Source: Lytechinus pictus | Taxonomy: Eukaryota | Direction of reading: 5' to 3' | Assembly: GCF_037042905.1 (NCBI RefSeq) | Contig: NC_087250.1 | Location: forward strand, 15,998,001-16,062,000 | DNA: 64,000 bases | Shown: positions 38,101-50,100 of the stretch, in pieces | Numbering within the stretch: position 1 is the stretch's first letter | How the letters are laid out: each line of letters opens with the position of its first letter | Program-made: the position numbers and the translations under genes | The notes under the pieces: generated by a model | What the model was told of the DNA's origin: nothing | What the model saw: the letters and a program-made list of their open reading frames with translations, nothing else | Database searches by the model: none

Positions 38101-41100
38101 GAAGGAAGGAAAGAAAGAAGGAAGGAAAGAAAGAGGAAAGGAAAGAAAGAAAAAAGGAATGGGCAGTAGTAGTAGTAGTAGTAGTAGTACATGTAGTAGT
38201 AGTAGTAGTAGTAGTACAGTCGTCATCAGTATTATTGTTATTGTTAGGAGTAGAATGAGTATTATGATGATTACTATTATGTTTTTCATCTTTCGGTCTC
38301 GTATTTTACCGTCATAGTTTTACTCAAATCACTTTATTTCTCTTAGTTCCTGAATGTGAGCACCCCGGCAACATGCTCCTCCTCTTTACTCCTGACCTCC
38401 ACTCCTATTGGTGGAAATCATTCTCAAGCCACACCCACAATGCTCTCAACACCAGTTGGGTAAGATATACTTCTTGGCCGTATTCTTAACTCGGGTTTAA
38501 ATTAAACCCTGGTTTGAAGTTGTGGTTGAATTATGGAGAGCCAATTTGGGTACAAATCCCTGATTGTACACATCCAATTAATTATCTCATATGATGCCCA
38601 AATTGTCTGGGAATGGTATCTGAAGTATTTTTCTTCATTATGAAAGCAAAAGGAAACAAATAGTTAACATAAGAAATATACAATATAAACATAATTTTTT
38701 AATTTTTGGCTCCCCATAATTTTAACACAGAGTTAGACAGTTAGACTGTGGTCTAAATCAAACCCGACTTCAGAATATGGGGCAATGTGTTTCTCCCATT
38801 TTATTCTTGTTTTGGTAAATAAAATGAGAAAGGAACTAAATCAGTCTCTCTTAGTTTCATCATCATTATCATCATCATCACTATTTACCTTAATTATCAT
38901 CACCATCATTACTATAACCTTATTCACTATCATAATAATCATTATCTTTATAATAGCCACTATAACCTAATTCGTCATCATCATCATTTATTTTTTTAAG
39001 AAATGCCTAATCAGAATCCTCATTTTGTTGTATATTTTGGCGTTAAAATAGCCTTAACCCATATTAAACTGGGGGGGGGGGTAAATTTGACCCCCCCCTC
39101 AACAAATTTTGTCACTACGCCGTCGCACGAATTTTTTTGACTGCGCCGCTCTCTGACTTTTTACTTTCAAGTCTTGCGCATCTTTTGAGACCAAATTTGC
39201 GACGCCCGGGTACGCGGTTCCAAAAGTACGCAACGTTTTGTAAGTGCATGTCGGACCAGAAATTGCTCAAAAACGTGATTCTGTGTAAAAAGTCAATGCA
39301 AATTGTGTTTTTCAACCAAAAATCATAAATGTATGATTATTTTTAGTTTTGTTGGTTTAAATGGATTTATTTTATGCTATTTATGATCGCAAAAGGGTTC
39401 TAGACAAAGTTCATCGGGAAAAACAATAAAAAAAATACATAAGAATTAAAAAAACAATAAAATACATAAGAAATTAATTATATTTTTGCAATTTTTTGTA
39501 GATATTTGTTAGAAATGTAATAATTGATACTCCCACCAAAAATTAGCATTCTACTAGCTATATAAATTGAGTTAAAAGTAAATACATACACAAATAACCA
39601 AATTTATGGCAAATTTTATATGCCATGAAAATTTTACTATACACTCTTGTAGTTTAAATCGGCTCTACGCGCTTGCAAATTTTCGCGGCGATTGTGCAAT
39701 CAGTGGCCGAGATCTGAGGGGGGGTCAAATTGCCCCCCCCCCCCCCCCCCCAGTATATACTGGTCCGAAAAAGCCCAGTTAAGATAGGGTTAATCTATAA
39801 ACTGGCCCTTTGTGTTGTTCTCTTCTTTACAGTTTGTTTGTCTTGACTTCATATTGTACACTTTTCATAATTATGTTTGTTCAATTCAATTCAATTCAAA
39901 TAAACATTTATTTTCTTCCATTTCAAAACACTTTTTATAAACATTAGTTCATACAAAAATCAAATTGTTATGAGGAATATAAATATGTACATGTTTGGTA
40001 TAAAGAAGAAGGCGTATACCCTAAAAGCCGAGGCTTGTGACGGGATACGCCTATAGACAGAAATACAATACAAAATACAATACAAAAGAAAGGGCAGAGA
40101 AAAGAAGAGAAGGAAATGGAACGAGAGAGGGAGACGTGAGCGGGAGGCGGGCATGAATTACTGTATAAAATAGAATGCTCAACAAATGTATCAGTGGGGG
40201 CAAAAATATAAATGCCGCAACAACAATTGTCCATGGTTCATGTTAACTTAAAGTCAAAAGGAAACGTAAGTTGAAAAATATTCATATATAAAATGACAGA
40301 AGAAGTTTTTTCATTTTATACTTAAAGCTACTTGACGATAGAGATTGTTTTATGTAATCCGGTATTTCGTTCCATATTTTGGGGCCAGTATAACGAATGT
40401 TGTGTTGAAAGATTATTTTTCTATCTTTGGGAATGAATATTTGATTATTTGAGCGGGTATCAAAATTATGTATGTTGGAAACATGCGTAAACAAATCACG
40501 AAATTTGTGTGGAATTTGAGAATTTAAACACCTGTAGAGAAACTGACATTGTCGAAGTTTATTGATGTCGTCTAATTTCAACAATTTTAGGGAATGAAAC
40601 AAATTTTTAGTATTTGCTAGTGGTATATTGTAATCTGGAGAAATAATACGCACAATTTTATTTTGAAGGGAACATAATTTCTTAAGATGTGTTTGGTATG
40701 TGTTCGCCCAGACCAAATTACAGTAATAAAAATATGGCAAGATTAAAGAGCAATATAATGTACGCAATACAGTTTTAGGCAAGTAAAAACTTAGGCGATG
40801 TATTATTCCAATATTTTTTGAAACTTTGTTCTCAATTTCATTTATGTGATGTATCCATGTTAAATTACTATCAATAATTACGCCAAGAAACCTTGTACTT
40901 TCAACTCTGGGAATAATTTGGTTGTTAAGTTTCACCACTACATGATTAAAATCAATACGCCTTGTGGAGTTACGGAATATAATGTAATTGCATTTTTTAT
41001 AGTTAATGGTAAGCTTGTTTGCACAAAACCATTTACAAACATTTGTTAGTTCAGTATTTACAGTTTCACACAAGTGATGAAGATTTCTATCAGAATAAAC

Positions 41101-47100: not shown

Positions 47101-50100
47101 CAAAGTTTGGTGAAAATGACATGGATTTCACTTTAACTGTGGAACGTCCTTAAATGAAAGAATCTCAATTTGATATACCATTTCACATGCTCAAATGAAA
47201 ACAAATATTATTGACAACTAAAGTCTAGTTGGTGATGCATAATAATTTTAAAAAGCAAAGGTCTAGTGTATAAAGGATGTAGGTTTACCCAGCAAAATGT
47301 TGAAGTATCAAAAGTTCTAAAATACAAGAGTGATACATAATTATCATAAGTTAGTGACCAACATCCAAAAAAGGCATGGTCACTGGCGGGGTTGTCACGT
47401 ACGGTATGTGGTGGGCTAAGAAGTAGAAAATGTACATTTTCATATGCCGTTACATTGATTAGTGCGTAAATCTACCTTATTAGCAAATTTCATGTAATAA
47501 CAAGCTGTAAACATGAACGAGACCATTACTACTCCTGAGTCTAAGGTATATTTAATATAATTGTTTAAAGATGCCTATATAAAGTATGTCAACTAGGAGC
47601 TTGTTTCGCTTAGTTTGATTTATATCTTTGCTTATTAAAGGGTTTTCTCTAAAATGAAGGAAGAGTTTTCTCATGGACCTAGGTCCATGGTGTTACCCTA
47701 TTAAATATATTATGCATTGGGTTATTGAAAAAGAAAGCAAAAGTGTATTAATTGGAAAAGACAGATTCAACTCCTGCAATTAGAAGGCCATAACCTTTGA
47801 CGATCCCATATAGGTGACAGGTCAAGAATCCACCGAATAAATGCAATGCTAAGGAGGTTTGTAATTACCACACATATCATGCATACCATGGTTCAAACAT
47901 TTTTGTTGAATCAATGCGTTATGCTAAATGGCCAGTATACATCTTTTGAGTTCAGATATTCAGTTTACATAACATCCTATGTTATGAAAAGACTCATCAA
48001 AATATAGGCTTAGTGTTTGAAAAATATCACTTGATTAGCTTATGAGAGACTAAGATTGATGACAAAAGGTATTCAAGAGCACCAAATGCACTGATATTGA
48101 AAATAACGCAAAAGCACTGATTTAGGCCAACTTATGAATCAGAGATATGTGAAGTAGGGATTCATATTCACTAATTTGGCAAAGAGTCATATTACAGAGC
48201 AAATAAAATGCCATCATGGTATAGTTTATGTTCTGTAAGTAATGTTTTATACATAAAGTGTCATACGGAATATGAAAGTAGATACGTTAATCAGAGAGAA
48301 AGCGTTGACTTCTCACCAGTTGTTATTATAAAGCAAAGACAAGTGCCATCATGAAATATTTTTGTACTTTAACTTATAGTTTATACATTTGCAGATGGAC
48401 ACAATATAGTGATTGAAAGCATAGATTTCTCACCAGTTTCACGGGGTTTACTCTGTGTATATGTCCCACGGAGCTCCGGCTTTACCCTTGTCCCGTGTTT
48501 CTAGTTGAAGCTTTGTACCGATGAGGCGAACTCTGGTAGATTTACCCTTGTCTTTGCGTAGTGAATAAGCCAATTTCTCAAGTTGAAATCGCTTGGCCTT
48601 GAGATGTGGGGGGAGATCCGTGCGGATAGTGAATCCAGGACGAGAATTTTTGTCGCGAACCTTGCTCTCGAAAGCTTGTAGGACTTCGTCGCGGTCAAAC
48701 ATTGATCCAAACCTAGCAATTATCGGGTCCGGCGTTTGGCGTTTGGCGTTCTTGGCTGCTTCCTGGGTAGGGCCTGCGTGGGAGCTGATGCGCGTTCACA
48801 AAATACATTGCATTCACCTTCTCTGGAGAGAATCCTAGCGTAGAAATGGCGACGCGAATATCCTGTAAAGCATTCTTTGATGTCTTGGGCGCTCCGGGTG
48901 TTGATTTGATTCCGTAGAACAACAAGTTGAGTTTCCGCTCATGTATGTCAAGACTAGTAATTGCATCTGTTAGCTTGGTCTCCGACTCATGGGCGTTCTC
49001 ATCCATTTTAGGTAGCACCACATTCTCCAAATGCGCAATTCGCGCCGTCGTATTCTCTGCAAATTTTTGTAGATCCGTGGTAGTTTTTCGCACAGCTCCT
49101 ATTTCTGCTCTCAAGTTAGAAATTCCGTCATTCATAATATTCAATTTTTCCATGATTTTATTCATTGACCCGTCAAAGTCGTTACGTAGCTTATCAATGG
49201 ACTCCTCTGTTGCATACTCACGACGGCCACTTTGTTCGTTGATTTCATCGTCGGAAGAAGGCTTATTCCGCAAGGAATATGCCTTAGCATTAGTAGATTT
49301 GGTGTTATTAGATACTTTGCTCATGATTCTGTTGTGAAAAAGCGTTATTTGAAGAAGATGCAGACGGATTTTGTTGTGTATTTTTTAAGCTCCTAAAATT
49401 TCGTGCTACATGCTCAGTGCGCCCTCTCTATCCAATGTTATGTTTATATTTCCATTATGGGGCCTCCAAGGAAACAGTATCTGTATGCCAATTACTGATG
49501 GAGCCACCCTACTAAAAAAGACTTAAAAATGAATAAATTATCACTATTATTATCATTATAATCTGTTTTTATCATCATTGCGACACTTCTAACATGATTA
49601 TCATCAGTAATCTTCCATTTCACTAACATTGTTGAAAGAGCTCTGTTTCTGTTTTTTTTCCTCCCCTATAGATAAAACCTTAATAGAACTATTACTAAAG
49701 GTAAATCAGGTTTCGAATAAAAACTATAAGCGCAAAACGCTTTTTGTTCATGATAATTATTGTCGGCCTGTTTTCTGTTACCATGGCAGCACATTCCGAA
49801 CACCACGAATCAGACGATCACTGATTGACACGCCCAGGACTCCTACCCCATTCAAGGACGCCCTCGCTGCCATCGAGAAAGCAGGTGGACCGATCAGGAA
49901 AATGGTAAGCAATTTTTTTAAAGAACTGTTTGAACCATTTTCAACATTACACAAAATGAAGTAAAAAGTTTAACCCATATTCTGAATTATAAATACATCT
50001 AGCTAAATATATTTGTAAGATAGGAAATAATAGCAAAAATAGAAAGATATATACTAGTGATCAAAGTATATAGCTGTGGTGAATTATGGAGTTCTACAAT

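Follow-up and report, generated by a model that had tools for sequence, protein, structure and literature searches.

The described long interspersed elements (LINEs) closest to the one analysed here are L2-lineage, Daphne-clade elements with a type II first open reading frame (ORF1), namely L2_3 and L2_5, sea-urchin Daphne included (PMC4120745). Our element lies in a 64,000-nt stretch of Lytechinus pictus DNA (contig NC_087250.1, positions 15,998,001 to 16,062,000 of the forward strand; 'the window', numbered from its first letter), and it likewise pairs a Transposase-22-type ORF1 with an ORF2 encoding an apurinic endonuclease (APE) and a reverse transcriptase (RT). In L2_3 and L2_5 the start of ORF2 may or may not bear a PHD, a PHD-type N-terminus occurs in some homologues of the window ORF2, and ORF1 swapping has been proposed for this group; the available part of that account describes neither spacer lengths nor an upstream ORF (uORF), and the window ORF1 is nearer to L1-clade than to Daphne-type ORF1s. 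Vertebrate L1 elements with long intergenic regions (IGRs; PMC5381506, and for megabat PMC4072516) resemble the window LINE in their AT- and T-rich spacer and unexplained ORF2 translation, but their IGRs measure 257-1032 bp (PMC5381506; 'hundreds of bases' in a review, PMC3894237) and an IRES (internal ribosome entry site) is invoked, whereas the window LINE has a spacer of about 4 kb, belongs to another clade and carries a coupled uORF. In human L1 (Alisch et al. 2006, as cited in PMC5972666 and PMC4072516) ORF2 also depends on termination of an upstream ORF, but there the spacer is 63 nt and ORF1 is itself that ORF. The stop-restart geometry of the window LINE, AUG-N5-UGA, is common to caliciviruses, influenza B and silkworm SART1 (PMC5972666); in these a functional gene, translated from the 5' end, serves as the upstream ORF, whereas the window uORF lies 3.6 kb behind ORF1 as a third frame and has neither a recognisable product nor a UGGGA motif. 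The pertinent passages of PMC3894237 and PMC5381506 treat ORF2 translation across long LINE IGRs as an open question, judging reinitiation improbable or inefficient and invoking an IRES.

Our favoured reading, held with moderate confidence, is that the window contains one young CR1-group LINE from a family with an inter-ORF spacer of about 4 kb, in which ORF2 is translated by reinitiation from a uORF at the end of that spacer. The part of this reading that treats the locus as a single element with a mostly native spacer is highly probable. The LINE lies antisense to a plus-strand host gene, inside the host intron 38459-49789 (host exon at 49790-49904, plus strand). A sequence-only reading had bracketed it by one pair of target site duplications (TSDs), and the pair is present as TTATGTTT at 39871-39878 on the 3' side and 49438-49445 on the 5' side; taken alone it is modest evidence, the 8-mer occurring 11 times on the plus strand, with a 2-3% chance of a match within 200 nt. 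The (TTGAA)n tail in that reading was likewise found, as (TTGAA)4 at 39880-39899, leaving only 1 nt between tail and TSD. A simple-repeat 3' tail and a TSD without long terminal repeats mark the insertion as a LINE, and a contig from a public sequencing run (below) also joins its flanks. In the sense direction (minus strand throughout) it comprises a 5' untranslated region (UTR) of 113 nt at 49325-49437, to which another copy aligns as far as 49413; ORF1 at 48448-49324; a non-coding, T-rich spacer at 43952-48447; the coupled uORF at 43499-43951; ORF2 at 40282-43509; and a T-rich 3'UTR at 39900-40281 with an AATAAA near the tail.

The distance from ORF1 to ATG 43536 is 4911 nt, as the sequence-only reading gave it, and the 934-bp miniature inverted-repeat transposable element (MITE) that it saw nested in the spacer is present between TTAA duplications at 46212-47153. 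This MITE, possibly Kolobok-like by its TTAA and 5'-GG ends, has perfect 20-nt arms including the TTAA (46212-46231 and 47134-47153) and other copies elsewhere, reads departing from the window sequence at 46212 and 47153. Without it and one TTAA 3973 nt remain, in agreement with the ~3.97 kb of that reading, or 4000 nt when the spacer is measured to ATG 43509; the accompanying statement that no long ORF exists there did not hold, in view of a 150-codon frame at 43951-43499, outside which about 3.55 kb is left as non-coding. The T-rich sense strand was borne out (AT skew -0.083, matched by 2 of 93 overlapping 4-kb flank windows), its likeness to the 3'UTR (-0.27) less so. The spacer carries about 100 AUGs and a single AATAAA against 4.4 expected, a borderline depletion (p=0.06). 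Two 50-nt stretches within it, 44070-44119 and 45182-45231, are 70% similar and end in sense-strand A-runs; they are possible relic tails or low-complexity chance.

To ask whether the spacer belongs to the element, four public runs (X1 from organism A, X8, X11 from organism C, and X21) were aligned to positions 39121-50370, with 15 of 188 joints and 24 of 11,817 pieces listed. Each of the four contains pieces of the spacer, that from another organism included. In X1, contigs cover 49413-48213, 48203-47835 and 47859-47150 with 0-7 differing letters each; the last breaks exactly at the MITE TTAA, with 117 further letters that do not align to the MITE, and would thus derive from a MITE-less copy. 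X8 yields spacer pieces at 43720-43969 and 44786-45097 with 1 and 3 differences, at a depth of 3-4 like that of its ORF1 and ORF2 pieces, while its right-flank bins lie at 0-0.33. Among the X11 matches listed, depth is 281-471 for ORF1 and 106-539 for six places in the spacer; it is 279-1662 for 10 positions within the 5' half of ORF2, about 1000-4200 towards the 3' end and 31-35 for two flank contigs, as expected of a family in which many copies are 5'-truncated and some are full-length. Pieces of ORF1, spacer and ORF2 are equally young: apart from the 3' end, they diverge by no more than about 1% in X1 and X8. One X1 contig joins 39838 to 49483 and is consistent with an uninterrupted copy of an older repeat into which the LINE inserted. 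The flanks 39780-39870 and 49446-49560 resemble halves of an older T-rich repeat on the plus strand, which ends in AATAAA and ATT-like repeats and is possibly the 3'UTR of another LINE. That the spacer is a pile of later insertions private to the window copy is very improbable and largely refuted: one nested MITE is real and one spacer bin is poorly covered elsewhere, but spacer pieces recur in all four runs and no part of the spacer other than the MITE matches any other place in the 64-kb window.

The intact ORF2 frame was confirmed at 43545-40282 (minus strand) with APE and RT domains (PF03372, E 1.2e-6; PF00078, E 4.9e-36), but its start was moved. The 77%-identical homologue P0004 begins at the position of ATG 43509, from which ORF2 has 1075 aa; the in-frame ATG 43536 chosen by the sequence-only reading would extend it by 9 aa. 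A short Cys-rich N-terminal segment has no Pfam PHD match, while homologues P0015 and P0083 carry PF00628. For comparison we used relatives found as loci in animal-like contigs inside metagenome-assembled genomes (MAGs), with RTs 35-52% identical; 287 stretches in prokaryotic MAGs encode animal-type LINE ORF2s and are probable host contamination of bins. The window RT is 24-29% identical to L1-type RTs and 35-52% identical to most CR1-group loci, and in an RT tree (the row for L070 disregarded, a wrong match having been taken) it lies off the L1-type RTs on a separate branch, which places it outside L1/Tx1. We classify the LINE as CR1-group, probably Daphne/Crack-like, a label that rests on architecture and C-terminal motifs rather than labelled reference RTs. 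Daphne and Crack are themselves not monophyletic (PMC13343379, in part). Spacers in the relatives measure 308, 310, about 900 (two families), 1294 and about 2460 nt, the last figure depending on a tentative reading of an ORF1 C-terminal fragment by a motif, and one L1-type element has 1025 nt. The 4-kb spacer is the longest among the elements compared, the end of a continuum, and long spacers as such are not unique to this family. Searches of the literature, which did not extend to Repbase entries or subscription papers, brought up no description of a multi-kb spacer in a LINE or of a coupled uORF in a spacer.

The extent of ORF1 (877 nt) agrees with the sequence-only reading, but it is not a single open frame in the window copy: a 7-nt tandem duplication at 48731-48750 shifts the frame. 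The duplication is private to the window copy or its assembly, being absent from all four public runs (as shown by 3 of 3 X21 reads and by the full contig depth at that place in X1, X8 and X11), and an intact 290-aa homologue matches the two ORF1 pieces at 80% and 77%. A profile of 42 homologues, taken from 321 matches, finds the LINE-1 ORF1p structure 2yko (E 5e-8), and on this profile evidence ORF1 is an RNA-binding type II, L1ORF1p-like protein (coiled coil-RRM-CTD), frameshifted in the window copy, which is probably disabled in cis as a result. Its only named homologues are Diadema sea-urchin gene models. The ORF1 homologue scores 118.8 bits against the ORF1 of locus L101, which precedes an L1/Tx1-type ORF2 (by its endonuclease), and less than 5 bits against ORF1s of Daphne-type relatives. 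An ORF1 pattern found no match in genome contigs and one locus in metagenomes, single-protein locus searches gave no match, and a plasmid search was empty; ORF1 matches in G002 were set aside as distant L1-type elements. No fused ORF1-ORF2 protein was found, a weak negative, and only two Diadema gene models carried ORF1 pieces.

Over the final 450 nt of the spacer the -1 frame relative to ORF2 stays open, giving 147 open codons before the ORF2 ATG, and the TGA that closes this frame lies 5 nt after ATG 43509, so that stop and start overlap as AUG-N5-UGA. Read from its first ATG at 43879, the uORF encodes 126 aa and is the longest frame in the spacer, the next having 45; in the two remaining frames of the same region stops number 10 and 15. 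A frame of this length arose anywhere in the spacer in 0.55% of shuffles, and one ending at the ORF2 start in 0 of 2000 whole-spacer shuffles (local shuffles, p=0.0002). Stop-restart forms described in PMC5972666, as far as its account goes, are AUGnxUGA (x=2, 5, 8, 14), UAAUG and AUGA, and the window LINE, at x=5, is one of them. The organism C sequence differs from the window by 24 substitutions and no gap across 264 nt of the uORF region, after which 93 nt are skipped. Searches with the uORF peptide gave no Pfam match above cut-off and no Atlas match, which is uninformative, and by eye the uORF peptides of different elements share only the hydrophobicity expected from T-rich DNA.

The same arrangement recurs in relatives. 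Under a rule of at least 30 open codons and a stop at x=2, 5 or 8, or UAAUG/AUGA, a coupled uORF was found in 12 of 18 elements (WIN, i.e. the window, L015, L038, L042, L044, L046, L053, L059, L064, L070, L101 and L113), the control rates being 28 in 607 for upstream ATGs and 5 in 207 for internal ones; across 1000 shuffled surveys the total was 3.2 on average and never more than 8. The survey excluded family duplicates, eight loci whose ORF1 and ORF2 share a frame interrupted by a single stop, any locus lacking an ATG ahead of the APE domain, and L112, which is open to the contig start. Among families with both ORFs placed and a spacer of at least 300 nt, 7 of 8 pass, L034 having a 95-codon uORF that ends 52 nt before the ATG. 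The closest ORF1 relative with context, L101 (248-2963, plus strand), has a 1025-nt spacer, a coupled uORF at x=2 and an L1/Tx1-type ORF2, and in L015 the uORF (424 aa) covers the entire 1294-nt spacer. Some loci show other arrangements. L015 (3722-6481, plus strand) begins with what is presumably a Tx1-like ORF1, and in frame directly past its stop a 433-codon AT-rich frame spans the spacer and ends 2 nt past the ORF2 ATG, which may mean readthrough or relay; in L049, L058, L060, L063, L069, L071, L079 and L081 a long ORF1 and ORF2 in the same frame are separated by one stop, which suggests stop-codon readthrough; and in L052 (4298-8017, plus strand), which has no coupled uORF, the ORF2 endonuclease is preceded by a leader of hydrophobic character, by a stretch resembling 2A and by a PHD-like motif.

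In the mechanism that we propose, the window copy would have acquired the MITE and the ORF1 frameshift after insertion, a step that is well supported. LINE ORF1s are translated by normal scanning, and that of this family would be as well. ORF2 would follow from coupled termination-reinitiation after the 126-aa uORF rather than after ORF1, the uORF serving for ribosome delivery and not for its peptide. The sequence-only reading had argued that this layout needs a route other than plain ORF1-to-ORF2 reinitiation, and with a mostly native spacer carrying about 100 AUGs we concur: because these AUGs block scanning from ORF1, ribosomes must load near the uORF, and no relay of overlapping uORFs from ORF1 to ORF2 was seen among ORFs of at least 25 aa. 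We tentatively place rare internal loading on the unspliced full-length RNA first among the routes, since it is the only one that by itself retains the spacer in new copies. Loading on a shorter RNA from an internal promoter is a weaker possibility and would require ORF2p to act in trans on full-length RNA; candidate internal promoters suggested by their words are the most GC-rich spacer 40-mer at 45983-46022, with CRE- and YY1-like words, and a GC-rich cluster at 47378-47417 with KLF-, E-box- and GC-box-like words (both minus strand). Very little ORF2p is needed, as argued in part of PMC3894237, and stripping a megabat L1 IGR of all AUGs lowered retrotransposition according to part of PMC4072516. 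The IRES-like structure floated in the sequence-only reading drew no direct support (fold z -0.64, no credible Rfam match): upstream of ORF2 Rfam gave two matches, both far under gathering scores, with which unstructured internal entry is still compatible.

Several points weigh against the favoured reading. No contig spans the spacer or links ORF1 to ORF2, and contig depth is not copy number. The flank joint in X1 is one contig whose intervening letters are not reported, and host pre-mRNA transcribed from this locus in another individual may be the source of the X1 contigs. Means of the X11 spacer bins are mostly 8-152 (596 beside ORF1) against 361-406 in ORF1, and bin 45121-45495, empty in X1 and X8, could be private. 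The L1 affinity of ORF1 hangs on one close locus. Coupling is found only from ATG 43509, the stop lying at +35 from ATG 43536; the survey criterion was fixed after the data had been seen; L053 and L064 are close relatives; and 6 of the 18 elements fail the rule (L022, L024, L027, L028, L034 and L052), as do two later loci with an ATG, L117 and L119, while L118 lacks one. In L117 and L118 ORF1 is adjacent to ORF2. The UGGGA core of the termination upstream ribosome-binding site (TURBS) is absent from the 90 nt upstream of the window stop and occurs in 2 of the 12 coupled elements; SART1 relies on downstream structure and not on a TURBS (PMC5972666, in part).

An overlapping uORF can also repress the main ORF, even to the exclusion of its translation (part of PMC10275272), and the alternative that survives best, unlikely as we think it, builds on this. 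The spacer would be native but passive, the uORF a repressor that keeps ORF2p low, and ORF2 initiated independently, by leaky scanning of a shorter RNA or by internal entry. The excerpts of two papers are in keeping with it, one reporting that long IGRs inhibit L1 (PMC4072516) and the other predicting IRES-like signals in 32 of 36 long vertebrate L1 IGRs (PMC5381506). Repression needs no stop within 2-8 nt of the AUG, yet this placement recurs, and the unremarkable fold of the region argues against a structured independent start.

Also unlikely, and rated slightly below repression, is splicing, one of the routes named in the sequence-only reading. The spacer would be an intron running from a donor 14 nt past the ORF1 stop to an acceptor at 43948, with an 81-nt AUG-free gap to the uORF AUG and then relay. 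Of all donor-like sites in the stretch scanned, the two that score highest (5.6, against 5.3 for the host exon donor) do lie 131 and 14 nt after the ORF1 stop, a 24-nt repeat present twice (48298-48321 and 48415-48438, minus strand) carries the donor-like CTG|GTGAGA in each unit, and the open frame begins beside the CAG at 43948. These scores come from a rough matrix made for this analysis, the acceptors available in the neighbourhood of the uORF are weak (with pyrimidine scores of at most 0.65), and relatives show no consistent donor after ORF1. Moreover, spliced RNA encoding both proteins should give spacer-less copies, and no spacer-skipping joint appears among the joints listed (15 of 188), so that splicing found no direct support. 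None of the runs listed as containing the sequence is recorded as RNA. Raw RNA from X21 (about 6% of the run) is uninformative on this point because it is dominated by antisense reads, as expected of host pre-mRNA: 15 of 21 non-MITE bins are mostly antisense to the LINE, 4 are opposite and 2 empty, with a sense depth of about 0-1.7.

It is improbable, and more so than splicing, that an L1-type 5' part with ORF1 and a Daphne-type ORF2 are two elements, nested or joined by one template switch, with the 8-bp match a chance event or the whole a one-off chimera. ORF1 is indeed nearest an L1-clade ORF1, CpG content shifts at both ends of the spacer and no contig ties the two ORFs together. Against this, the single nucleotide between tail and TSD leaves no space for a second 3' end, the flanks are joined in one contig, pieces of ORF1, spacer and ORF2 are of equal youth in X1 and X8, organism C shows them at comparable depth, and identity to the best homologues is alike (77-80% for ORF1, 77% for ORF2).

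Within the favoured reading of one LINE with a native spacer, base composition bears on where that spacer came from. Outside the uORF it holds 30 CpG against 85 expected (observed/expected, o/e, 0.35), parts of the host intron giving 0.35-0.63, while CpG is not depleted at ORF2 codon positions 3-1 (o/e 1.03), in the 3'UTR (0.94) or in the uORF (about 0.8). In seven relatives tested the spacer was not markedly lower in CpG than ORF2, except in L070 (0.21 vs 0.47). The depletion supports, as a hypothesis, the captured cargo that the sequence-only reading had listed, and, together with the affinity of ORF1 for an L1-clade counterpart, it suggests a hybrid formed by ORF1 swapping that also took in host DNA. 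Methylated host DNA would then separate a Daphne-type uORF-ORF2 module from the L1-type 5'UTR-ORF1 module that it came under, an origin that we regard as a serious possibility rather than our expectation. Metcalfe and Casane, in the portion of PMC4120745 concerned, proposed hybrids where a 5'-truncated ORF2 lands behind the ORF1 of another element, and a uORF moving along with ORF2 would make such a hybrid viable.

Elsewhere in the window, a very high-copy repeat with G-run and C-run ends occupies 39060-39752, just left of the LINE. An array of 24-nt units with several frames open lies at 60529-60936, and a 424-codon frame at 61784-63058 (minus strand) matches the MFS_1 transporter family (E 1e-13).

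For LINE biology, a coupled uORF offers a specific alternative to an IRES for ORF2 translation, and the 4-kb spacer is an extreme case that separates uORF coupling from reinitiation driven by ORF1. More speculatively, and with doubt, CR1-group and L1 LINEs with long spacers may share a third frame that acts as a ribosome conveyor, coupled to ORF2 by AUG-Nx-stop and freeing ORF2 for ORF1 swapping; the window family would then be a fixed swap with about 3.5 kb of captured host DNA, and 'ORF1-less' vertebrate Crack elements may have their ORF1 kilobases upstream. No ORF1 was found in vertebrate Crack elements according to the available part of PMC13343379, and an ORF1 at a distance could be one explanation. 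Consensus building that halted at 'non-coding' DNA upstream of ORF2 would miscall such families as lacking ORF1 and miss their full-length copies.

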